The position numbers and the translations under genes were made by a program. Source: Mycobacterium sp. (GTDB lineage Bacteria; Actinomycetota; Actinomycetes; Mycobacteriales; Mycobacteriaceae). Taken from it: 64,000 bases of DNA. The stretch lies in NCBI GenBank assembly GCA_046330795.1, contig JAXLSA010000009.1, one strand, 5' to 3'. This document shows positions 49,705 through 64,000 of the stretch, piece after piece; the stretch's first letter is position 1; every line of letters starts with the position of its first letter. The notes beneath the pieces were generated by a model that did not search any database, was not told the DNA's origin, and saw only the letters and a list, made by a program, of their open reading frames with translations.

Positions 49705-52518
<2,814 letters not shown>

Positions 52519-52772
52519 AGAGAATCCCCTAGAGCGGTTGGAGCGTGGTTTCGCGACCCATCGTAGGTGACGCGGTGTTATGCCCCGGTCAGGTCGGTCG
52601 TGCCGAGGTGGCCGGATTTGCCCCTGACGGCTTGCCCGGCGGCTGCGGGGCGGCCCGCGCCGCGGAACCGGTCGGGGCGTGAGGGGCCACTTTGTGTCCC
52701 TGGGGACGCCCAAAAGTCACCCAAGTGGCTCCTCACCGAGGCCGCGACCGGACGCTCGTCAGCGGTGATCGC

Positions 52773-53435
52773 TCACTCGAGGCGGATCAGCCCGTAGTCG
52801 AAGGCGTGCCGGCGGTACACCACCGAGGGCCGGTCGGATTCCTTGTCGTGGAACAGGAAGAAGTCGTGGCCGACGAGTTCCATCTCGTAGAGCGCCTCGT
52901 CCACGGTCATCGGCGTGGCCGGGTGTTCCTTGACGCGGACGATCTGGCCGGGTTCGTGGTCGTCGACGGCGTCGATCTGGGCCGGCGTGGCGACGGCGTC
53001 GGGTTCGAAGAGGTGGGGCACGACGGCCGTGGCCTCGTGCAGCGAGACCGGCGTCTTGTCGCCGTAGTGGATCTTGCGGCGGTCCTTGTGGCGGCGCAGC
53101 CGGGCTTCCAGTTTGGCGACCGCCGATTCGAGTGCGGCGTAGAAGCTATCGGCGCAGGCTTCGCCACGGACCACCGGTCCGCGCCCGCGGGCGGTGATCT
53201 CGACGTGCTGGCAGCTCTTCCGCTGGCGGCGGTTGCGCTCGTGGTCGAGTTCGACGTCGAACATGTAGATGGTCCGGTCGAAGCGTTCGAGCCGAGCGAG
53301 CTTCTCCGCGACATAGGCCCGGAAGTGGTCTGGCACCTCGACGTTGCGACCCTTCACCACCACCTCTGCGCTGGGGGCTTCGGTCTCATCCACCGCTTCG
53401 GGGGCATCCACGAATTGACTTGACATGCTTGACAT
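52773..53435 (-). CDS. hpf: Ribosome hibernation promoting factor (long HPF, Rv3241c)
   Basis: VKGRNVEVPDHFR, ELVGHDFFLF, YRRHAFDYGLI; exact start uncertain (53426/53435/53453). Confidence 0.93.
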   Translation of the reverse strand: MSSMSSQFVDAPEAVDETEAPSAEVVVKGRNVEVPDHFRAYVAEKLARLERFDRTIYMFDVELDHERNRRQRKSCQHVEITARGRGPVVRGEACADSFYAALESAVAKLEARLRRHKDRRKIHYGDKTPVSLHEATAVVPHLFEPDAVATPAQIDAVDDHEPGQIVRVKEHPATPMTVDEALYEMELVGHDFFLFHDKESDRPSVVYRRHAFDYGLIRLE

Positions 53436-53772
53436 CTCGATTCGTTGTCGCATGGCACGCGGGGCGTGCCCGGGCAATTCAGAACATGCGCTGCGAGCCT
53501 CGCGGATGATCACGCGTCACTCCGCGGCGCCAGGGGTCGAGTACCACCTCCTTCGCGCCCGCCGCAATCGCGTCTCGCGTTCATGGATCGTTGGCACCGA
53601 AGGTAGTCCTTGTTCACCCGCCGGGCCACCTTTTCGCGCACCTGTTGCCAGAACTTTCGGCCCTTGTTACAAGGACCTGCGGCACTATGCGGCAAGTTTG
53701 CGGTTGCGGCCGTCGACATACCGCACGCCAGCTGCTGTTTCGCGTGACATTTCCCAACACCCACGCCACGAA

Positions 53773-54402
53773 CTACGCGGCGGCCAGCACCAACACGCCC
53801 GCTACATGGGCCCCGGCGGCGCGCAGGACACGCACGGATTCGGCCGCGGTGGCACCGGTGGTGACGACGTCGTCGATCAGCAGGACGTCGCCGGGCACCG
53901 GGCCGGTTGTCCGGATCCGGCCGGCGATGTTGCGTTCGCGGGCCGCGCTGTCCAGGCCGACGGAGTCGCGCACGCCGGCCCGGAATCGCAGCACCGGGGC
54001 GACGCCGATCCCGGGGTGCGCGCCGGTGGCCCGGATGGCCAACCGGGTGACCGGGTCTCCCCCGCGCCGGCGTGCGGCCAGCCGGCGCGTCGGTGCGGGG
54101 ACGACGGTCAGCGGGGTGTCGAGGATGCCCCAGTTCAGCAGCCGGTGCAGCCCGAGCGCCAGGGCGTGGGCCAGCGGTGCGGTCAGGTCGCTGCGGCCGC
54201 GTTCCTTCAGGGCGACGACGGCCTGGCGGCGCGGTCCGGCGTGGCGGCCCAGCGCGAACACCGGGACGTCCGGGTCGACGCGGGGGGTGACGACGTGCGG
54301 CTGGTCGTCGGCGACGGTCAGCGCGGCCGCGCAGTCGGGGCACCACCGGGTGGCCGGCGCCCCGCAGCCGCCGCACTGCAGCGGCAGGAGCAGGTCGAGC
54401 AT
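53773..54402 (-). CDS. comF: ComF family phosphoribosyltransferase-like protein (Rv3242c)
   Basis: CGGC...WCPDC zinc finger, LIDDVVTTGATA; CACACT 6 nt before the ATG. Confidence 0.9.
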   Translation of the reverse strand: MLDLLLPLQCGGCGAPATRWCPDCAAALTVADDQPHVVTPRVDPDVPVFALGRHAGPRRQAVVALKERGRSDLTAPLAHALALGLHRLLNWGILDTPLTVVPAPTRRLAARRRGGDPVTRLAIRATGAHPGIGVAPVLRFRAGVRDSVGLDSAARERNIAGRIRTTGPVPGDVLLIDDVVTTGATAAESVRVLRAAGAHVAGVLVLAAA

Positions 54403-54515: not shown

Positions 54516-55859
54516 ATGACCAACACCCTGACCCGCCTTCCGCAGGCGCGCCGGATCCGCACCGAGATCCCCGGACCACGCTCCCGCGAACTGGCGGCCC
54601 GCCGGGCGGCGGCACTGCCGGCCGGCTTGGTCAGCAGCGCCGGCGTCTATGCGGCGGAAGCCGGCGGCGGTGTGCTCGTCGACGTCGACGGAAACTCGTT
54701 CATCGACCTCGGTAGCGGCATCGCGGTGACGACCGTCGGCAACTCCGCACCGGCCGTCGCCGCCCGGGCGGGCGAACAACTGACCCGGTTCACCCACACC
54801 TGCTTCCTGGCCACCCCGTACGAGGGCTACCTCGACGTCGCCGAGCGGCTCAACGCGCTGACCCCCGGCGATCACGTGAAGCGCACAGCGTTGTTCAGCA
54901 CCGGCGCCGAGGCCGTCGAGAACGCCGTCAAGTACGCCCGGGCGGCCACCGGACGGCCCGCGGTGGTGGTGTTCGACCACGCCTTTCACGGTCGCTCGCT
55001 GCTGGCGATGACGATGACCGCCAAGAATCAGCCCTACAAGAAGTCGTTCGGTCCGTTCGCCCCCGAGGTGTACCGCGCGCCGATGGCCTACCCGTACCGC
55101 TGGCCGTCGGGACCGGACAACTGTGCCGCCGAGGCGTTCGAGATGTTCGCCCAGCTCGTCGATGCGCAACTGGGCGCCGACGCGGTCGCTGCCGTGGTGG
55201 TCGAACCCATTCAGGGCGAGGGCGGGTTCATCGTGCCCGCGGCGGGGTTCCTGCCCAGGGTCGCCGAGTTCTGTCGCGACCGCGGCATCCTGCTGGTGGC
55301 CGATGAGGTGCAGACCGGGATCGCGCGCACCGGCGCCTGGTTCGCCTGCGAGCACGAGGGCCTGGTGCCCGATCTGATCACCACCGCCAAGGGGCTGGCC
55401 GGCGGGCTGCCGCTGGCCGCGGTCACCGGCCGCGCCGAGGTGATGGACGCCGCACACCAGGGCGGGATCGGCGGCACCTACGCCGGTAATCCGGTGGCGT
55501 GCGCAGCGGCACTCGGGGTCTTCGAGGAGATCGAGTCCGGTGGCCTGATCGAGCGCGCCCGCGCGATCGGCGAGCTCATGGTGTCCGAGTTGCGCGGCAT
55601 CGCCGCAGCGACGGGCGTCATCGGCGAGATCCGCGGCCGCGGCGCGATGATCGCCGCCGAACTGGTGCGTCCCGGCACCCGCGAACCCGACCCGGCCGCG
55701 GTGGCCGCCGTCGCCCGGTACTGCCACGACAACGGCGTATTGACCCTGACCGCAGGAACTTTCGGGAACGTCCTGCGCTTCCTGCCTCCGCTGGCCATCT
55801 CCGACGAGCTCCTCCTGGACGCCTTCGGCGTGCTGCGCGAGGGCTTCGCCGCACTCTGA
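54516..55859 (+). CDS. gabT: 4-aminobutyrate/5-aminovalerate aminotransferase (class III PLP)
   Basis: TGAEAVENAVK, FHGRSL, EPIQGEGG, DEVQTG, TAKGLAGGLPL, GGTYAGNP. Confidence 0.9.
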   Translation: MTNTLTRLPQARRIRTEIPGPRSRELAARRAAALPAGLVSSAGVYAAEAGGGVLVDVDGNSFIDLGSGIAVTTVGNSAPAVAARAGEQLTRFTHTCFLATPYEGYLDVAERLNALTPGDHVKRTALFSTGAEAVENAVKYARAATGRPAVVVFDHAFHGRSLLAMTMTAKNQPYKKSFGPFAPEVYRAPMAYPYRWPSGPDNCAAEAFEMFAQLVDAQLGADAVAAVVVEPIQGEGGFIVPAAGFLPRVAEFCRDRGILLVADEVQTGIARTGAWFACEHEGLVPDLITTAKGLAGGLPLAAVTGRAEVMDAAHQGGIGGTYAGNPVACAAALGVFEEIESGGLIERARAIGELMVSELRGIAAATGVIGEIRGRGAMIAAELVRPGTREPDPAAVAAVARYCHDNGVLTLTAGTFGNVLRFLPPLAISDELLLDAFGVLREGFAAL

Positions 55860-55873
55860 GAAAGGACCCCCAC

Positions 55874-57067
55874 ATGACTGCCACGATCGCTCCCGCCACG
55901 GACACCCGAGGCCCGCTGGAACTGTTCGACATCGACCGACTGCTGGACGCCGACGAACGTGACATCGCCGCGACCGTGCGCCGTTTCGTCGACACCCGGC
56001 TGCGCCCCGACGTCGCTGAGTGGTTCGAATCCGCTACCCTGCCAAAGGAATTGGCCAAGGAGTTCGGCGACCTCGGACTGCTCGGCATGCACCTGACCGG
56101 CTACGGCTGCGCCGGCACCAACGCCGTCAGCTACGGTCTGGCCTGTCTCGAGCTCGAAGCCGGTGACAGCGGCTTCCGCAGCTTCGTCTCGGTCCAGGGT
56201 TCGCTGGCGATGTTCTCCATCCACCGGTACGGCTCCGAGGAACAGAAGAACGAGTGGCTGCCGCGGATGGCCGCCGGTACGGCCATCGGCTGCTTCGGCC
56301 TGACCGAACCCGATTTCGGCTCGAACCCGGCCGGCATGCGCACCCGCGCAAGGCGCGACGGCGCCGACTGGGTACTCGACGGCACCAAGATGTGGATCAC
56401 CAACGGCAACCTCGCCGATGTCGCAACCGTGTGGGCACAGACCGACGACGGAGTGCGCGGCTTCCTGGTGCCCACGGACACCAAGGGTTTCACCGCCAAC
56501 AAGATCACCCGCAAGCTGTCGCTGCGCGCCTCGATCACCTCCGAACTGGTGCTCGATAACGTACGACTGCCCGCCTCGGCGCAGCTGCCGCTGGCGCAGG
56601 GCCTCGGCGCCCCGCTGTCATGCCTGAACGAGGCCCGGTTCGGCATCGTGTTCGGCGCCCTGGGCGCCGCCCGGGACAGCCTGGAGACCACCCTGGCCTA
56701 CACGCAGTCCCGCGAGGTGTTCGACCGGCCACTGTCGAGTTATCAACTCTCCCAGGAGAAGCTGGCCAACATGACCCTCGAGCTCGGCAAGGGCATGCTG
56801 CTCGCCCTACACCTCGGGCGCATCAAGGACGCCGAAGGTGTGCGGCCCGAGCAGGTCAGCCTCGGCAAGCTCAACAACGTCCGCGAGGCCCTGGCGATCG
56901 CCCGGGAATGCCGAACCCTGTTGGGCGGCAGCGGTATCACACTGGAGTACTCACCGCTGCGGCATGCCAACAACCTGGAATCGGTGCTCACCTACGAGGG
57001 CACCTCCGAGATGCACCTGCTGTCCATCGGCAAGGCACTCACCGGGCACGCGGCGTTCCGGTCATGA
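55874..57067 (+). CDS. Acyl-CoA dehydrogenase, glutaryl-CoA dehydrogenase-like
   Basis: DSGFRSFVSVQGSL, CFGLTEPDFGSNP, LLGGSGIT.EY...RH..NLE...TYEGT. Confidence 0.85.
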   Translation: MTATIAPATDTRGPLELFDIDRLLDADERDIAATVRRFVDTRLRPDVAEWFESATLPKELAKEFGDLGLLGMHLTGYGCAGTNAVSYGLACLELEAGDSGFRSFVSVQGSLAMFSIHRYGSEEQKNEWLPRMAAGTAIGCFGLTEPDFGSNPAGMRTRARRDGADWVLDGTKMWITNGNLADVATVWAQTDDGVRGFLVPTDTKGFTANKITRKLSLRASITSELVLDNVRLPASAQLPLAQGLGAPLSCLNEARFGIVFGALGAARDSLETTLAYTQSREVFDRPLSSYQLSQEKLANMTLELGKGMLLALHLGRIKDAEGVRPEQVSLGKLNNVREALAIARECRTLLGGSGITLEYSPLRHANNLESVLTYEGTSEMHLLSIGKALTGHAAFRS

Positions 57068-58521
57068 CGGTCGCGATCCGCCAGCTGCTGGCCGGGCAAT
57101 GGCGCGACGGCGCCGGCGACCCGTTGCGCAGCCTGAACCCGGCGCGTCCCGACGTCGTGGTGGCCGAGGGCGGACTCGCCGGCGCGGCCGATGTCGACGC
57201 CGGCGTTGCCGCTGCGCGCGACGCCCTGCCCGGCTGGGCGCGGACGCCGATCCACGAGCGCGGCGCGGTGCTGTCGGCGGCCGCCGACGTGGTCGACGCC
57301 AACGCCGAGGCGTGGGGCGTCGAGCTCGCCGCGGAGGAGGGCAAGACCCGGGCCGAAGGTGTCGGCGAGGTCCGCCGGGCCGCGCAGATCCTGCGCTACT
57401 ACGGCAACGAGGGCGACCGCCAGGCCGGCGAGATCTACGCCTCCCCGCGCGCCGGCGAGCAGATCCTGGTGACCCGCAAGCCGATCGGCGTGGTCGGCGT
57501 CATCACACCGTTCAACTTCCCGATCGCGATACCGGCGTGGAAGATCGCCCCTGCGCTGGTGTACGGCAATGCCGTGGTGTGGAAGCCCGCGAGTACCGTG
57601 CCGTTGCTGGCGATGCGGCTCGCGCAGGCACTCACGCAGGCCGGGCTGCCCGCCGGCGTGCTCGGTCTGCTGGTCGGCGGCACCGATGTCGGGGACGCCA
57701 TTGTCGGTCACCCCGGGATCGATGCGCTGACGTTCACCGGGTCCACCGGTGTGGGCCGGCGCATCGCCGCGGCGGCGGCCGCCCGCGGGATCCCGGCGCA
57801 GGCCGAGATGGGCGGCAAGAATGCCGCCGTGGTGCTCGACGACGCCGACCTCGATCTCGCGGTCGATCAGGTGATGGCCGGCGCGTTCCGTTCGACGGGC
57901 CAGAAGTGCACCGCCACTTCACGTCTCATCGTCACCGACGGTATCGCCGACCGGTTCCTGGCGGCGCTGACCGAGCGCGCCCGAGCGCTCACGGTGGGTG
58001 ACCCGACCGACGACGCCACCCAGATGGGCCCGGTCGTCAGTGCGGACGCACGGCGCACGATCCAGGCCGGGATCGACGCCGCCACCGCGCAGGGCGCCAC
58101 GGTGCTGGCCGGCGGGGAGCCGTATGCCGACGGCCTGCTGGCGACGGGCTTCTTCGTCCCGCCGACCGTGGTCGAACTCGGTGCCGCGGCCGACGTCTGG
58201 ACCGACGAGCTGTTCGGCCCGGTGCTCGCGGTCCGCCGGGCCAGCGGCGCCGAGGCGGCCTTCGCCCTGGCCGACGACAGCGAGTTCGGGTTGTCCGCAG
58301 CGGTATTCACCCAGGACCTCACCCGGGCACTGCAGGCCGTCGAGCACATCGATGTCGGTGTGCTGCACATCAATTCGGAGTCGGCCGGCGCGGATCCGCA
58401 TGTGCCCTTCGGTGGGGCGAAGAAGAGCGGGCTGGGCCCCAAGGAGCAGGGCGGGGCAGCCCGGGAGTTCTTCACCCACACCACCACGGTGTATCTGCGC
58501 GGCGGGACGCCCGGCGCATGA
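57064..58521 (+). CDS. Aldehyde dehydrogenase (semialdehyde DH type)
   Basis: PFNFP, FTGS, EMGGKN, GQKCTATS, ELFGP. Confidence 0.92.
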   Translation: MTVAIRQLLAGQWRDGAGDPLRSLNPARPDVVVAEGGLAGAADVDAGVAAARDALPGWARTPIHERGAVLSAAADVVDANAEAWGVELAAEEGKTRAEGVGEVRRAAQILRYYGNEGDRQAGEIYASPRAGEQILVTRKPIGVVGVITPFNFPIAIPAWKIAPALVYGNAVVWKPASTVPLLAMRLAQALTQAGLPAGVLGLLVGGTDVGDAIVGHPGIDALTFTGSTGVGRRIAAAAAARGIPAQAEMGGKNAAVVLDDADLDLAVDQVMAGAFRSTGQKCTATSRLIVTDGIADRFLAALTERARALTVGDPTDDATQMGPVVSADARRTIQAGIDAATAQGATVLAGGEPYADGLLATGFFVPPTVVELGAAADVWTDELFGPVLAVRRASGAEAAFALADDSEFGLSAAVFTQDLTRALQAVEHIDVGVLHINSESAGADPHVPFGGAKKSGLGPKEQGGAAREFFTHTTTVYLRGGTPGA

Positions 58522-59630
58522 GCGCCGGCGCACTGGACGGCATCGTCGTCGTCGACTTCAGCCGGGTGCTGGCCGGGCCGTACGCGACGATGATGCTGGG
58601 CGACTTCGGCGCCGAGGTGATCAAGATCGAGCGGCCCGGTACGGGCGACGACACCAGGCACTGGGGCCCGCCGTACGACTCCGCCGGTGTGGCAACGTAT
58701 TTCAATTCCGTCAACCGCAACAAGCGGTCGGTGGTGCTCGATCTCGCCGACCGGGCCGATCAGCAGCGGGCCCGGGAACTGGTGGCCGGGGCCGATATCG
58801 TGGTGGAAAACTTCCGGCCCGGCACCATGGAGAAGCTGCACCTGGGCTATCCGGACCTGGTCGACCTGCGCCCTGACCTGATCTACTGCTCGATCACAGG
58901 TTTCGGCCACGGCGGCGGTGCCGCCCTCCCGGGCTACGACCTGTTGGTCCAGGCCGTCGGCGGGCTGATGAGTATCACCGGCACCGGGCCGGGCGATCCC
59001 ACCAAGGCCGGCGTGGCCCTGGTCGACGTGCTGGCCGGGTTGCATGCACTCAGCGGTATCCTGGCCGCACTGGCGTATCGGGACCGCACCGGGCAGGGCC
59101 AGCGGGTGGACACCAATCTGCTTGCGGTGCTGTTGTCCTCGCTCGTGAACCAGGCCTCGGGCTATCTCGGTGCCGGGTCGGTGCCCGGCATCATGGGCAA
59201 CCGGCACCCGAGCATCGCGCCGTACCAGGTGTTCGACACCGCCGACCGCCCGATCACCGTCGCGGTCGGCAACGACAAGCAGTTCGGCGCGTTCTGCGGG
59301 GCGATCGGACTGCCGGAGCTGGCGGCCGATCCGCGGTTCGCGACCAACCCGCAGCGGGTGGCCAATCGGGATGCGTTGTGCGCGTTGCTCGAACCGGCGT
59401 TGAAGGCGGCCGGCGCCGATCACTGGTACCAGCGGCTCACCGCGGTCGGCGTGCCGGCCGGTCCCATCAACGACGTCGCCGAGGCGTTCGCGTTCGCCCG
59501 TTCGCTGGGGATGGAGGCCGTCGTCACCGTTCCCGGCGGCACCGCGCCACAGGTCGCCAACCCGGTGTCCATGTCGGCGACGCCGGTGAGTTACCGCAGT
59601 GGCCCGCCGCGGCTGGGTTCCGGTGACTGA
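58518..59630 (+). CDS. Family III CoA transferase (CaiB/BaiF; succinyl-CoA:glutarate CoA-transferase-like)
   Basis: RVLAGPY...LGDFGAEVIKIE, NRNKRS, ENFRPG, GYD...QA. Confidence 0.9.
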   Translation: MSAGALDGIVVVDFSRVLAGPYATMMLGDFGAEVIKIERPGTGDDTRHWGPPYDSAGVATYFNSVNRNKRSVVLDLADRADQQRARELVAGADIVVENFRPGTMEKLHLGYPDLVDLRPDLIYCSITGFGHGGGAALPGYDLLVQAVGGLMSITGTGPGDPTKAGVALVDVLAGLHALSGILAALAYRDRTGQGQRVDTNLLAVLLSSLVNQASGYLGAGSVPGIMGNRHPSIAPYQVFDTADRPITVAVGNDKQFGAFCGAIGLPELAADPRFATNPQRVANRDALCALLEPALKAAGADHWYQRLTAVGVPAGPINDVAEAFAFARSLGMEAVVTVPGGTAPQVANPVSMSATPVSYRSGPPRLGSGD

Positions 59631-61081
59631 CCGCGTTCGGCCAGCAGCAGATCGGCCTTGACCGCCAGCCACAGTTGCGCGCGGCTGTCGGCGGACTCCA
59701 GTTCGTCGCCCAGCAGGGCCCGAATGCGACGCATCCGGTTGCGGACGGTGTGCCGGTGGATGCCCAGATCGACGGCAGCCGAATCCATCTGACCGTTGTG
59801 GCGCAGGTATGCCGCCAGGGTGGGCGACAGTTCGCGCTCGCCACGCAGGGCGGCCAGGGGCTCGGCGAACACCCGCAGCTCCGCGGTGGTGCGGCCGCCG
59901 AGCAGCATTCCGAATGTGCTCAGCTCGTCGAATGCGGTCAGTCCACCGCCGGCGCCGGCGCGGGCCGCGGTGCGCGCCTGCTCGGCGCCCACAGCCAGCT
60001 CGGCCAGACCCACCGGCCGCGACACCCCGCCGCCGGCGGCACCCGAGAGCCGCTGCCCACTGCCGGCGGCCGGCACCACCAGCACGATGTCGTCGCCGTC
60101 GGGGGCCATCAGATACGGGCCCGCGCCGAACAGCCGGCCCACCCGCTGCTGCGCGGTCAGTACCGGACCGGTTCCCGCCAGCACGGCCACCGTCACCTCC
60201 GCGGTCGGATCGAAGCCGAAGTAGCGCAGCACCCCGTCATCGACAATGCCTGGGCCGCTGAGCAATTGGCGGGTGACCGCGGCGCGCAACAGGTCCTCGG
60301 CGTCCACCATCCGGGCGGGCTTCTCAACGGCAATCGCGACCAATGCCACCGCATGGGCCAGCAGTAGCCGGTCGGCGTTCGACATGGGTTCCCCGGTGCG
60401 CACCGCCAGGTGCCCGCGCACCGGCTGCGCCGCCCGCAGTGCCTGCACGGTCACCAGGTCCTCGCCGTCGGAGACCACCCAACCCGCCCCGGGCCGCTTC
60501 GAGTCCGCCAGGACCGACAGCAGGCGGGGCTGCGCGGGCCCGGCGCCGGCCAGTGCCGTGCCGTCGGCGCCGGCCACCACCACGGTGGCCGACAGGGCAT
60601 CGGCCAGCGCGGCCACCACCGCGGGGATGCCGCCGCGCAGCGTCGCGCGGGCCAGTACCTGCTGACGGTCGGCGACCCGCTGTACCGCCGAGAGCTCCTC
60701 GGCCCGTAGCGCGTCGACGACCACCCGGGTGATCGCGATGAACGGCGTCGACGGCGGCACCGCCAGAACCGGGATGCCCAGTTCGTTCCCCGCGCGCAAC
60801 ACACCGGCGGGCACCGCCCGCAGGGTGGTGCCGGTGTCGACCGCCAGCGCCGCGGTGCCGGCATCGGCCAGCCGTTGGACGTAGGCGCGCTGGGCCGCCG
60901 CGTCGGCGCCGAGGTTGATGCCGGTGGTCATCACCAGTTCGCCGCCGGCCAGGTACGGCGCCGGGTCGGCCAGTTCGATGGCGTGCGCCCAGGCGATCTC
61001 GCGGTCGGCGGCCTGCGCACCCGCAGCCAGCGTCAACCCCAGGGCCTGGTGACCCGCCAGATCGCGTGCGGTGATCGCCAT
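59591..61081 (-). CDS. PucR family transcriptional regulator
   Basis: N-terminal WAHAIELADP..YL.GGELVMTTG; C-terminal HTH LGIHRHTVRNR. Confidence 0.92.
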   Translation of the reverse strand: MAITARDLAGHQALGLTLAAGAQAADREIAWAHAIELADPAPYLAGGELVMTTGINLGADAAAQRAYVQRLADAGTAALAVDTGTTLRAVPAGVLRAGNELGIPVLAVPPSTPFIAITRVVVDALRAEELSAVQRVADRQQVLARATLRGGIPAVVAALADALSATVVVAGADGTALAGAGPAQPRLLSVLADSKRPGAGWVVSDGEDLVTVQALRAAQPVRGHLAVRTGEPMSNADRLLLAHAVALVAIAVEKPARMVDAEDLLRAAVTRQLLSGPGIVDDGVLRYFGFDPTAEVTVAVLAGTGPVLTAQQRVGRLFGAGPYLMAPDGDDIVLVVPAAGSGQRLSGAAGGGVSRPVGLAELAVGAEQARTAARAGAGGGLTAFDELSTFGMLLGGRTTAELRVFAEPLAALRGERELSPTLAAYLRHNGQMDSAAVDLGIHRHTVRNRMRRIRALLGDELESADSRAQLWLAVKADLLLAERGQSPEPSRGGPLR

Positions 61082-61091
61082 CCGAGCAGTT

Positions 61092-61907
61092 CTACTCGCT
61101 GCCCGCCCGAACGGCCACCCCCTGCAGCCGCGCGGCCGCTGCGGCCTCGCAGGCCGTGACGAATGCGTCGAACAGTCGCAGCCGGTCGGCCGCGGGGCCG
61201 TCGTCGTCCTCGGGATGCCACTGCACACCCAGATACCAGCGATCCGGGTCCTCGATGCCCTCGACGATCCCGTCGAGTGCGCGCGCCGCGACCACCAGAC
61301 CGTCACCGACCCGGTCGACGGCCTGGTGATGACCCGAGCGTCCGATGATGCGGTCGGTTCCCAGGATCGACGCGAGCCGGGTTCCGGCGACGATGTCGAT
61401 CGGCTCGTCGACGAATTCCGGTTCGCCCGGCGCCCCGTGGTGCAGCACGTAGTCGGCGATGTCCCCGATGATGCTGCCACCGCGGGCTACGTTGAGCAGT
61501 TGCGAGCCGCGGCAGATGCCGAACACGGGCCGGCCGGCGCGCTCGGCCGCTGCGATGGCGGCCAGCGCGTCGCGGTCGGCCCGCAGATCCACGCCGTATG
61601 CTTTCGGATTCACCGCCGCGCCGTAGCACGATCCGTCGATGTCACCGCCGCCGAGCAGCATCAGGCCATCGAATTCTGCTGCACCGGATGGGTTTTCGAG
61701 CGGCTCGGTGGTGTCCCACAGTTCATGTCGGACGCCCAGCTGCACCAGCGTGGTGAGGGCGACGCGGGTGAACCGGGTGATCAGCTCGGCGTCGGACGCG
61801 CTGATGTCGGGATAGTTCAACGAGGCCAGGACGCAGATCCGGGCGCTGGGCGTATACGGTGGCCGCACCTGTGGGATGACGTCCTCGCGACGGACCCGGA
61901 AAGTCAT
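61092..61907 (-). CDS. Gamma-glutamyl-amide hydrolase (peptidase C26/PuuD-like), copy 2
   Basis: GGGDID, GICRGSQLLN (Cys), HHQAVD, QWHPE (His-Glu). Confidence 0.88.
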   Translation of the reverse strand: MTFRVRREDVIPQVRPPYTPSARICVLASLNYPDISASDAELITRFTRVALTTLVQLGVRHELWDTTEPLENPSGAAEFDGLMLLGGGDIDGSCYGAAVNPKAYGVDLRADRDALAAIAAAERAGRPVFGICRGSQLLNVARGGSIIGDIADYVLHHGAPGEPEFVDEPIDIVAGTRLASILGTDRIIGRSGHHQAVDRVGDGLVVAARALDGIVEGIEDPDRWYLGVQWHPEDDDGPAADRLRLFDAFVTACEAAAAARLQGVAVRAGSE

Positions 61908-62617
61908 TGCTGCTCCTGACGTTTGGCTGCCCGGTCCACCAGGTCGGCGAACAGTGCGGCGTCGGTGGTCGACGTGGCGTGGCGGTCCTCGGGGTGCCAC
62001 TGCACGGCGAGGATGTCGGCATGCCGGTGCTCGACGGCCTCGACGATCCCGTCGGGCGCCACCGCGGTGACCACCAGATCGGCGCCGACGCGGTCGATCG
62101 CCTGGTGGTGATAGGACGAGACGTCGATGCTCTCGGCCCCGAGGACGGCGTGCAGCCGGGATCCGGGTGTCACGCGAACGTCGTGAACGGCGTTGTGGTG
62201 CAACGCCTCTTCGTCGGCCACGTCCTGGTCCAGCGTGCCGCCGGTGGCGACGTTGAGGATCTGCATGCCGCGGCAGATCGCCAGGGTCGGCAGGCCCAGC
62301 GCGATCACCGCGCGGGTGACGCCGAGGTCGAGGTCGTCCTGGAAGGCCACGGTGTCGACGGTGAGGGGGGAGGGGTCGGCACCGTAGCGGCAGGGCTCGA
62401 CGTCGGCGCCACCCGGCAGCAGCACACCGCCGAATCGCGACAGTCGTTCCGGTAGTTCGGCCAGCGGATCGGCGGCCGGGCCGTGTACCACCACCGGCTC
62501 ACCGCCGGCGGCCCAGATCGCTTCGCACATCGCCTCGGCGGCCAGGGTGGCCGAGTAGCGCAGGATCGGTACCTGTGCGGCCCGCCGTCCCACCACGGCC
62601 ACCAGCGGACGCGACAT
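61904..62617 (-). CDS. Gamma-glutamyl-amide hydrolase (peptidase C26/PuuD-like), copy 1
   Basis: LPGGADV, AICRGMQILNVA.GGTL.Q, SYHHQA, QWHPE. Confidence 0.9.
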   Translation of the reverse strand: MSRPLVAVVGRRAAQVPILRYSATLAAEAMCEAIWAAGGEPVVVHGPAADPLAELPERLSRFGGVLLPGGADVEPCRYGADPSPLTVDTVAFQDDLDLGVTRAVIALGLPTLAICRGMQILNVATGGTLDQDVADEEALHHNAVHDVRVTPGSRLHAVLGAESIDVSSYHHQAIDRVGADLVVTAVAPDGIVEAVEHRHADILAVQWHPEDRHATSTTDAALFADLVDRAAKRQEQQ

Positions 62618-63325
62618 TCAGGGTCCGCCGAAGGGATAATCGAGGGTCGGCAGCCACTCCTTCCAGATCTGCTGCAGGCGACCGGATTCGACGAGCCGGC
62701 CGAGCGCGACATCGAGCTCGGCCAGGGTATCGGAGCGCTCCTTGGACACCGCGATCCCCCACTTGTTGGCGGTCGGCACGGTGAACGCCAACTCGTAGTC
62801 GGGATGCGTCGCGCCGAGGGGCACGAACACCACGTCGTCGTCGACGACCGCGTCGACGTCCTCGGCCCGCAGTGCTGCCAGCATGTCGGCGTAGACGTCG
62901 TCGGAGCCCGCGCCGAACGCGACAGGTACTGCGCCGGTGAAGGTTTCGACCAGCGCCATGTTGGTGCTGTTCTCGATCGCGGCCACCCGGCGGCCGACGA
63001 GGTCCGCGGGGGTGTGGATGCCCGCGCCGCGGCGCACCAGCACGCCCTCGTGGAACACCGCATAGGGCCGGGTGAAGTCCACCTGGGCCCGGCGCTCGGC
63101 GGTGATGCCCTGCCCGCACAGCACCGCGTCGGCGTCGCCGCGCTGCACGGCCGGGATCATGTCGACCCACGGCACCCGCACCCACTCGACGGGCCGGCCG
63201 AGTTCGGCGCCCAGCGCCGCGGCCACGGCGGGCTCGTAGCCCTGCCGGCCGTTCTCGGGCGTCCACAGCGAGAACAGCGGCGGCGCTTCGGCATCCAGGC
63301 AGGCGAGTCGCAGCGGCCCGGTCAC
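62618..63325 (-). CDS. Amino-acid ABC substrate-binding (SBP family 3) fold protein without signal peptide
   Basis: GYE..VA..L...L..PVEWV, ITAER...VDFT.PY; no hydrophobic leader or lipobox. Confidence 0.82.
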   Translation of the reverse strand: MTGPLRLACLDAEAPPLFSLWTPENGRQGYEPAVAAALGAELGRPVEWVRVPWVDMIPAVQRGDADAVLCGQGITAERRAQVDFTRPYAVFHEGVLVRRGAGIHTPADLVGRRVAAIENSTNMALVETFTGAVPVAFGAGSDDVYADMLAALRAEDVDAVVDDDVVFVPLGATHPDYELAFTVPTANKWGIAVSKERSDTLAELDVALGRLVESGRLQQIWKEWLPTLDYPFGGP

Positions 63326-64000
63326 GGCAGGTCATCCCAGTACATGGTGCGCTCCCAGTCGGTGACGTATCCACAGAACCTGGCCCACTCGTCGGCGTGG
63401 AAGTCGACGAGGAGTTCGGACAGCACGGGACCCAGCGCCTCGGTGAGCACCCCGTCGGCCCGGAACGCCTCGATGGCCTCGCCGAGCGTCAACGGCAGCG
63501 CCGGGAAGCGGACGTCGGCAGGCGTGTCGTACGACGAACCCTGCGTCGGGGCGCCGGGATCGGTCGAGTTCTTCAGGCCGTCCTCGCAGGCCGCCAGGAT
63601 CACCGCGTGCGACAGGTACGGGTTCACGGCCGCGTCGGGCAGCTTGTACTCGAGGCGCCCCACCGCCGACAGCCGGACCGTGCAGGTCTTGTTGTCCAGA
63701 CCCCAGTTGATCCGCGACGGCGCGAATTGCCCTGCATCCCAATACCGTTTGTAGGAGTTGACGGTGGAGCCGTTGATCAGCATGGCACCGGCCGAGTGCG
63801 ACAGCAGACCGCCCAGCGCGTGCTTGCCGACGTCGGTCAGGTGCAGTTCGGTGACACCGGGGTCGGCCAGCACGTTCACGCCGTCGCGCCAGAGGCTGAA
63901 GTTGTGGTGGCAGCCGTTGCCCATCATCCCGGTGGCCGGCTTGGGCATGAAGCTGGCCTCGATGCCCAGTTCGCGGGCGACCTGCTTGCAGATCTGCCGG
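63322..64000 (-). CDS. Glutamine synthetase-like gamma-glutamyl-amine ligase, C-terminal part (runs off the right edge)
   Basis: FMPKP...GNGCHHNFSLW, WGLDNKTCTVR, RLEYKLPD...NPY. Confidence 0.88.
   Translation of the reverse strand, partial: RQICKQVARELGIEASFMPKPATGMMGNGCHHNFSLWRDGVNVLADPGVTELHLTDVGKHALGGLLSHSAGAMLINGSTVNSYKRYWDAGQFAPSRINWGLDNKTCTVRLSAVGRLEYKLPDAAVNPYLSHAVILAACEDGLKNSTDPGAPTQGSSYDTPADVRFPALPLTLGEAIEAFRADGVLTEALGPVLSELLVDFHADEWARFCGYVTDWERTMYWDDLP

Follow-up and report, generated by a model that had tools for sequence, protein, structure and literature searches.

The window analysed here is a 64,000-nucleotide stretch of contig JAXLSA010000009.1 of a Mycobacterium sp. (C9:34492-98491 in our numbering; the source genome has 4.55 Mb in 15 contigs), and this description concerns a putative amine-catabolic island that starts at window position 54516 and continues past the window end. 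Raw lists of open reading frames (ORFs) were crowded, because the region has approximately 70% G+C; genes were called by codon-position (third-position) GC analysis together with Pfam and NCBIfam profile scans of the window. Nine genuine genes were singled out at 54516-64000, and their starts, stops, 4-nt overlaps and short gaps indicate two tightly packed convergent operons. An earlier reading of the letters alone (the sequence-only reading) had proposed the same gene content, order and strands, and all nine genes were confirmed. The 3' ends of the two operons overlap by 40 bp, between the CoA-transferase gene on the plus strand and the PucR gene on the minus strand. The minus-strand operon is interrupted by the window end and runs about 5 kb further in the contig, where it was followed on L001, the contig stretch read for 15 kb past the window end (L001 position 3814 is the 3' end of the ligase gene). 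Past the ligase gene, the order along the minus strand is a cytochrome P450 gene, a 113-bp promoter region, a dCache gene and a GntR/FCD regulator gene, and an APC-family permease gene lies divergently from the latter. The whole island comprises 13 genes, from window position 54516 to about 69145 (extrapolated coordinates), and all 13 reading frames are unbroken and have strong codon bias.

With a probability of about 0.7, the window genes are part of a 13-gene island that is orthologous to the pipR/pipA (CYP151) locus of Mycobacterium smegmatis and would convert piperidine or pyrrolidine via gamma-glutamyl intermediates to 5-aminovalerate, glutarate and glutaryl-CoA. The genes of the island are as follows.

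54516..55859, plus strand: GabT-type class III aminotransferase, 447 aa (Pfam Aminotran_3, E 2.5e-120)
55874..57067, plus strand: glutaryl-CoA dehydrogenase (GcdH) of the decarboxylating type, 397 aa (judged from PDB matches and motifs)
57064..58521, plus strand: aldehyde dehydrogenase (ALDH), 485 aa (Pfam Aldedh, E 2.4e-151)
58518..59630, plus strand: family III CoA-transferase, 370 aa (Pfam CoA_transf_3, E 2.1e-122)
59591..61081, minus strand: PucR-family regulator, 496 aa (Pfam PucR, E 2.2e-29; HTH_30, E 4.4e-18)
61092..61907, minus strand: putative C26 gamma-glutamyl amidase b, 271 aa (Pfam Peptidase_C26, E 1.2e-37)
61904..62617, minus strand: putative C26 gamma-glutamyl amidase a, 237 aa (Pfam Peptidase_C26, E 1e-51)
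62618..63325, minus strand: signal-less protein of solute-binding-protein (SBP) fold, 235 aa (Pfam SBP_bac_3)
63322..64000, minus strand: glutamine synthetase (GS)-like putative gamma-glutamyl-amine ligase, C-terminal 225 aa in the window; full length 461 aa, to window-equivalent 64707, L001 3814-5199 (Pfam Gln-synt_C)
L001 5221-6432, just outside the window, minus strand: cytochrome P450 (CYP151), 403 aa (identity to MorA/PipA)
Beyond the window, upstream of the P450 promoter, minus strand: soluble dCache protein, 235 aa (double-Cache model)
Beyond the window, minus strand: GntR/FCD regulator (Pfam GntR and FCD)
Beyond the window, plus strand: APC-family permease

The CYP151 cytochrome P450 and the putative gamma-glutamylation genes

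The P450 gene lies 21 nt upstream of the GS-like ligase gene, and its product shares 81% identity with AAV54064.1 (MorA) and 82% with ABK70871.1 of M. smegmatis. It was placed in CYP151, for which at least 40% identity to PipA/MorA was taken as family and 55% as subfamily membership, and it carries the heme Cys-ligand loop FGFGAGVHYCLG and the I-helix acid-alcohol pair GGFDTT. According to PMC9477822, AAV54064.1 is MorA of Mycobacterium sp. HE5, MorA and PipA are N-heterocycle hydroxylases, and piperidine induces pipA in M. smegmatis; in PMC10382289, the P450 of Mycobacterium RP1 is named CYP151A2. The sequence-only reading had pointed beyond position 64000 for a CYP151 with a ferredoxin and for a permease: the P450, 81-82% identical to MorA/PipA, and the APC permease are indeed there, but a ferredoxin gene is not.

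No gene for a ferredoxin (MorB) or reductase (MorC) was found beside the P450, and the genome as a whole yielded no close homologue of either, the best matches (42% for MorB, 36% for MorC) lying elsewhere; dedicated partners hidden at another place in the genome were rejected on the basis of this search. Many other P450s are encoded in the genome, together with ferredoxins and reductases. For comparison, 80 related loci were collected, 72 of which carry the P450, GS-like, SBP-fold and C26 a genes together, and neighbours were searched for within 10 kb. The interval between the P450 and ligase genes holds both ferredoxin and reductase genes in 42 of the 72 loci, a ferredoxin gene only in 12, and neither in 17, this island included; the locus of Mycobacterium sp. 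M26 has the same ferredoxin-less layout. The morABC genes of Mycobacterium sp. HE5/RP1 (P450mor or CYP151A2, Fdmor and FdRmor) are likewise followed by a GS-like ORF, but include morB, for a 62-aa ferredoxin, and morC, for a reductase, which the island lacks.

The surroundings of the P450 gene vary in some of the compared contigs. One M. smegmatis genome (7.0 Mb) carries an insertion of two genes, for an ISL3-family transposase and PRiA4_ORF3, between dCache and P450 (L082 7696-9316), which splits the P450 from the upstream GntR and dCache genes; this insertion is absent in another (L083). In an actinobacterial metagenome-assembled genome (MAG), a P450 gene whose product is 69% identical (L066 10001-11191) has no other island gene within 10 kb; no other full-length locus departs clearly from the coupling of P450 and ligase. 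A locus of the alphaproteobacterium Gemmobacter aquatilis (L081 6780-18057) encodes a 58% identical P450, a reductase, two tandem GS-like proteins, an aminotransferase, an ALDH and sigma-54/PAS regulators, with no SBP-fold or C26 match. What the actinobacterial islands have in addition are genes for the signal-less SBP-fold protein, a soluble dCache protein, two C26 proteins and often GcdH with the CoA-transferase.

The GS-like protein scores under every NCBIfam cut-off for GS, type III GS, GmaS and PuuA, and its nearest PDB match is the glutamate--methylamine ligase 9qur (E 6.5e-60). When it is aligned with GlnA1 and GlnA2 of the same genome, Q-HQTAV stands in place of FDGSS and AGQFAP in place of GYEAP; equivalents of D50/S53 (ammonium site) and E327 (flap glutamate), which GlnA1 and GlnA2 keep, are missing, and the metal and ATP motifs (EPE, E..E, H.H) are retained. 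Its identity as a true glutamine synthetase was rejected by the scores under all GS cut-offs and the loss of the ammonium-site residues. That the protein is not a true glutamine synthetase, judged by these features, agrees with the sequence-only reading, which had called it a GS-like ligase. The genome contains five further GS-fold genes, namely GlnA1, GlnA2 and three GS-like ones.

Both C26 proteins retain the Cys-His-Glu triad (G-x-C-R-G, W-H-P-E), and both score under the PuuD equivalog cut-off. C26 a, with the motifs AICRGMQ and WHPE, has the PuuD model as its best NCBIfam match; in C26 b, the nucleophile lies in GICRGSQ and the His/Glu pair in WHPE. An ALDH gene with PuuC as the best NCBIfam match (under cut-off) is located between the two C26 genes in loci of the Streptomyces and Actinomadura types, and this supports a gamma-glutamyl-aldehyde intermediate. 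Profile scans found no gene for a flavin oxidase (PuuB) or other oxidase in the island, and the P450 takes that position.

Gamma-glutamyl routes are represented by the Puu pathway of Escherichia coli (PuuA-PuuD), the Ipu pathway of isopropylamine utilisation and aniline degradation (AtdA1/TdnQ with the C26-like AtdA2/TdnT). The common logic is ATP-dependent gamma-glutamylation, oxidation of the masked amine and release by a C26 amidase. The island differs in that oxidation would be performed by a P450 and not by a flavin oxidase or dioxygenase, and that the substrate would be a secondary cyclic amine; its ligase and both amidases are far under the PuuA and PuuD equivalog cut-offs. A separate Puu-like locus was found elsewhere in the genome (C1:1317861-1322980), with genes for an ALDH, a C26 amidase, a GS-like ligase and a divergent APC permease, whose products are 28-42% identical to those of the island.

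The proposed glutarate module, regulators and putative ligand-binding proteins

The aminotransferase passes the GabT cut-offs (NF004714, 705.8 bits against 639; TIGR00700, 557.9 against 506.65), and is proposed to act as a 5-aminovalerate/GABA:2-oxoglutarate transaminase (GABA, gamma-aminobutyrate). It is the second copy in the genome, with a 58% identical paralogue on contig C1. The sequence-only reading had described the next enzyme as glutaryl-CoA dehydrogenase-like, and comparison with structures bears this out: its PDB matches include 3swo, annotated as glutaryl-CoA dehydrogenase (E 6.9e-240), human GCDH 1sir (E 2.3e-105) and the non-decarboxylating 3mpi (E 1.9e-39). The motifs DSGFRS and TYEGT are present, which presumably correspond to Arg94/Ser95 and Tyr369/Glu370 of human GCDH. 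A generic FadE or a non-decarboxylating Acd was ruled out by the far better matches to GCDH structures, and by its sequence and active-site motifs the acyl-CoA dehydrogenase is a decarboxylating GcdH. It is encoded by the sole such gene in the genome, the next paralogue being 31% identical.

The ALDH, the only one in the island, is below all NCBIfam equivalog cut-offs (best GucD, 481 against 770; PuuC, 272 bits against 850), and its PDB neighbours are generic ALDHs; it is proposed to be a dehydrogenase of glutarate semialdehyde and/or gamma-glutamyl-aminoaldehyde. For the CoA-transferase, the best NCBIfam match is succinate--glutarate CoA-transferase (354 bits, under the cut-off of 750), and human SUGCT, succinate--hydroxymethylglutarate CoA-transferase, is matched in the PDB (9br7, E 4e-85). 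A function as succinyl-CoA:glutarate CoA-transferase is proposed. A decarboxylating GcdH is similarly paired with a family III CoA-transferase in gcdH-gcoT of Pseudomonas putida and in human GCDH/SUGCT. Unlike gcdH-gcoT of P. putida, the module of the island also includes genes for a GabT-type transaminase and for an ALDH in the same operon, and its proposed regulator is of PucR type and not of LysR type. Since GcdH and the CoA-transferase are needed for a C5 substrate only, their linkage points to piperidine; the sequence-only reading had used the same argument in favour of a C5 amine over plain GABA, and it is upheld.

The GntR/FCD regulator is 81% identical to the GntR protein of the M. smegmatis locus (MSMEG_6700/PipR), which is cited as a regulator of piperidine and pyrrolidine metabolism in PMC2018728. 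Its gene overlaps the dCache gene by 4 nt, so the two proteins are probably co-produced. Upstream of the P450 gene, TTGACA-N7-AATCTACTTTTAGAGT is followed by a GGAGG ribosome site. An inverted repeat, TCTA-N4-TAGA, overlaps the -10 hexamer of this promoter and occurs only twice in the 4.55 Mb genome, the other being an unrelated site. The arrangement TTGAC-N7-nnTCTA-N4-TAGAGT is present in 48 of the 80 loci, in several genera, and the 13-nt spacing is the same in nearly all of them. The repeat is regarded as a candidate PipR operator. The PucR-family regulator is encoded by the last gene of the minus-strand (ligase) operon; it accompanies the CoA-transferase-ALDH-GcdH block in 17 mycobacterial loci, and among the related loci always does so in mycobacteria. 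This regulator probably activates the convergent aminotransferase-GcdH operon.

The SBP-fold protein is encoded by a translationally coupled gene between the ligase and amidase genes. No signal peptide was found in 74 listed orthologues, the window protein included, all of which start a few residues before the first strand, and profile scans found no ABC permease or ATPase genes in the island. A role as an exported transporter component was rejected owing to the lack of a signal peptide in the orthologues, and the protein is presumably cytosolic. Its AlphaFold model (predicted local distance difference test, pLDDT, 92.4) superposes on ligand-bound arginine-, glutamine- and glutamate-binding proteins with TM-scores of 0.83-0.86. 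Residues R78, S120 and D162-D164 are invariant among orthologues and presumably match the sites which, in HisJ and LAO, hold the alpha-carboxylate and alpha-amino groups. Because these alpha-amino-acid-binding residues are kept, the protein most likely binds the glutamyl head of pathway intermediates.

The dCache protein is modelled as a double-Cache domain (pLDDT 94.7), and its N-terminal helix, read by eye, does not look hydrophobic. The structures closest to the model are amine sensors: CqsR (ethanolamine), TlpQ (histamine), McpU (putrescine), PctD and PctC (GABA). Trp, Tyr and Asp make up most of its invariant residues. To judge from this model, the protein probably senses an amine.

Conservation and genomic setting of the island

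On the M. smegmatis contigs (L082 and L083), all 13 genes recur with unchanged order and orientation, and a gene for a 62-aa ferredoxin follows that of the P450. Identity to the M. smegmatis proteins ranges from 62 to 91%: GS-like ligase 91%, GcdH 89%, SBP-fold protein 87%, aminotransferase 84% (over the 289 residues present in the compared locus), permease 84%, P450 about 81-82%, GntR 81%, CoA-transferase 80%, ALDH 76%, C26 b 75%, C26 a 74%, dCache protein 66% and PucR 62%. Besides the ferredoxin gene, the island lacks a succinate-semialdehyde dehydrogenase (SSADH)-like ALDH gene that stands beside the permease gene in M. smegmatis, and it occupies a different chromosomal site, between lpqB and comF-like/hpf/secA1. 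The P450 and the regulator of pipR-pipA of M. smegmatis mc2155 (PipA being CYP151A1) were reportedly characterised by Poupin et al. in 1999; a literature search, which included MSMEG locus tags, found no study of the genes of this cluster besides pipA and pipR. Among the related contigs, that of a MAG of the same species (L002) shows 100% identity, the most closely related species being sp. M26 and sp. shizuoka-1.

The core of the island is widely conserved. Among the 72 loci, C26 a is present in 72, the permease and GntR in 70 each, dCache in 69 and C26 b in 68, and the hosts belong to Mycobacterium/Mycolicibacterium, Streptomyces, Nocardioides, Actinomadura, Intrasporangiaceae, Arthrobacter, Brevibacterium and others. 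The genes of the glutarate module are found less often: GcdH in 35 loci, CoA-transferase in 31, ALDH in 30 and aminotransferase in 29. GcdH and the CoA-transferase stand in at least seven arrangements (downstream and convergent, upstream in either orientation, directly downstream), counted as separate events because they differ. The proximity of GcdH is far beyond chance for a single-copy gene in a genome of 5-7 Mb, with the raw count inflated by shared descent. Within the family, a ligase orthologue was found in 4 of 201 sampled genomes, which may be an undercount as at most eight candidates per genome were scored in the first-look filter. The island is an accessory trait.

The permease gene is followed by two or three small ORFs that match no known family, a gene for a 947-aa protein and lpqB-mtrB-mtrA. 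The 947-aa protein (L001 10759-13602, minus strand, about 6.3 kb past the window end) carries a C-terminal ADP-ribosyltransferase exoenzyme-toxin domain (Pfam ADPrib_exo_Tox, E 9e-12) and is shared only with the same-species MAG contig. Together with this gene, the island is flanked by comF-like/hpf/secA (window 49705-54402) on one side and lpqB-mtrB-mtrA (within L001 14112-18399) on the other, and so sits inside a housekeeping block; these two groups are near neighbours in Mycobacterium tuberculosis. Apart from the same-species MAG contig, none of the related loci fetched has the flanks of the island, and a genomic context shared with relatives was rejected, since the lpqB and 947-aa flank is common only to that contig. 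The island appears to have been inserted at, or moved to, its present site.

Proposed pathway and alternative explanations

The following scheme builds on the family assignments and linkages given above, and its chemistry is deduced from them, from known gamma-glutamyl routes (Puu, Ipu, aniline) and from the reported intermediates of piperidine breakdown. Piperidine or pyrrolidine would be taken up by the APC permease. PipR, the GntR/FCD protein, would act as a repressor on TCTA-N4-TAGA, and the co-transcribed dCache protein would probably sense the amine. The GS-like ligase would then use ATP to join the amine to the gamma-carboxyl of glutamate, as its family, missing ammonium-site residues and linkage suggest. 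CYP151 would hydroxylate the carbon beside the nitrogen, and the ring would open to gamma-glutamyl-5-aminopentanal, or to the C4 analogue from pyrrolidine; the order of the ligase and P450 steps is itself conjectural. The aldehyde would be oxidised by an ALDH to gamma-glutamyl-5-aminovalerate, from which a C26 amidase would release 5-aminovalerate (or GABA) and glutamate. The second C26 protein may cleave the unoxidised gamma-glutamyl amide as a safety valve, by analogy with aniline degradation. Judging by their families, the GabT-type transaminase would convert 5-aminovalerate to the semialdehyde and the ALDH would oxidise this to glutarate, the CoA-transferase would form glutaryl-CoA, and GcdH would yield crotonyl-CoA, PucR probably switching on this convergent operon. 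A C5-amine route via 5-aminovalerate had been put forward in the sequence-only reading, and the neighbouring CYP151, permease and PipR-type GntR genes lend it support; of its two candidate substrates, cadaverine and piperidine, the CYP151 shifts the choice from the former to cyclic secondary amines (piperidine, pyrrolidine).

Several points weigh against this pathway. The ALDH and the CoA-transferase both miss every NCBIfam equivalog cut-off, and the island has a single ALDH, whereas two aldehyde oxidations are required along the route. The P450 would depend on borrowed redox partners, because no ferredoxin or reductase gene adjoins it and the genome offers only the 42% and 36% matches. GcdH may also serve the breakdown of lysine or tryptophan, as the only copy in the genome, and 27 of the 72 loci contain none of GabT, GcdH, ALDH, CoA-transferase and PucR within 10 kb. 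Substrates, induction and step order in the source organism are all inferred. A precedent for glutamylation as the first step is reported to exist in the pip genes of Pseudomonas sp. KU43P (gamma-glutamylpiperidide synthetase and a P450 for piperidine), which likewise pair a GS-like ligase with a P450; a literature search found no paper on it. According to PMC9477822, free morpholine was oxidised by recombinant MorA together with its ferredoxin and reductase, and this speaks for the P450 acting first.

If the P450 does act first, on the free cyclic amine, the ligase would glutamylate 5-aminopentanal or 5-aminovalerate and so prevent re-closure to piperideine, with the ALDH and C26 steps following. 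The gene content fits either order, and known GS-like ligases mostly take primary amines. Such an order is nevertheless unlikely: the strict coupling of the P450 to the ligase, SBP-fold and amidase genes in the 72 loci, under one promoter, fits a glutamylated substrate of the P450, and glutamylation before oxygenation has precedents for isopropylamine, for aniline and, reportedly, for piperidine in Pseudomonas sp. KU43P. Loss of the dedicated ferredoxin and reductase could also mean that the island is a decaying or silent copy, for which the gap of only 21 nt between the P450 and ligase genes and the want of close MorB and MorC homologues in the genome might be taken as signs. The 13 intact frames with strong codon bias, the 17 related loci without both genes and the 12 with ferredoxin only, and the many other P450s, ferredoxins and reductases in the genome make this quite improbable.

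The remaining alternatives concern the substrate and the relation between the two operons. The GabT-GcdH-ALDH-CoA-transferase genes and PucR might be a general 5-aminovalerate/glutarate (lysine) operon, a mere neighbour of P450 and ligase genes whose amine does not feed into it. The sole copy of GcdH and the 27 loci devoid of all five glutarate-module genes agree with this, but 35 of the 72 loci have GcdH at most 10 kb away from the P450, in at least seven arrangements and several genera, where chance would place it in well under 1% of genomes, and PucR closes the ligase operon; two unrelated modules that are neighbours by chance are accordingly very unlikely. Even less credence is given to a Puu-like polyamine pathway, in which the ligase would glutamylate cadaverine or putrescine for diamine catabolism. 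A GS-like ligase, C26 amidase, ALDH and GabT do make up the Puu gene set, and cadaverine likewise leads to 5-aminovalerate and glutarate. Against it, a PuuB-type oxidase is missing and its place is taken by a CYP151 that shares 81-82% identity with enzymes linked to piperidine and morpholine, the regulator is a PipR orthologue, and the genome has its distinct Puu-like locus elsewhere.

Returning to the piperidine/pyrrolidine pathway, its chemistry follows known gamma-glutamyl logic and would not surprise a specialist. Features that were not found described are the constant presence of a signal-less SBP-fold and a soluble dCache protein, the pair of amidases, the conserved candidate operator, the recurrent linkage to a complete glutarate module and the ferredoxin-less variants. 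For the source genome the result is mostly ordinary annotation, that of an accessory catabolic island of known type.

Piperidine, pyrrolidine and morpholine are in common industrial use and also occur as fragments of natural alkaloids; since 1999, one P450 and one regulator have reportedly been linked to their breakdown by mycobacteria. In this island and its 70-odd relatives, the P450 travels with a putative glutamate-tagging ligase, two putative de-tagging amidases and two putative ligand-binding proteins, and often also with a complete predicted route from 5-aminovalerate to crotonyl-CoA. The outcome is a full testable pathway in M. smegmatis, a conserved candidate operator and two candidate new components. 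As a tentative extension, the CYP151 P450s (PipA/MorA) might act on gamma-glutamyl amides and not on free cyclic amines, with the SBP-fold protein as a carrier presenting the amide to the P450, or as an SBP-derived enzyme handling the ring-opened carbinolamide, and with the dCache protein as a cytoplasmic amine sensor partnering PipR. If this were true, the first step that textbooks give for the degradation of piperidine, pyrrolidine and morpholine by actinobacteria would be revised, and two new protein roles would be added.

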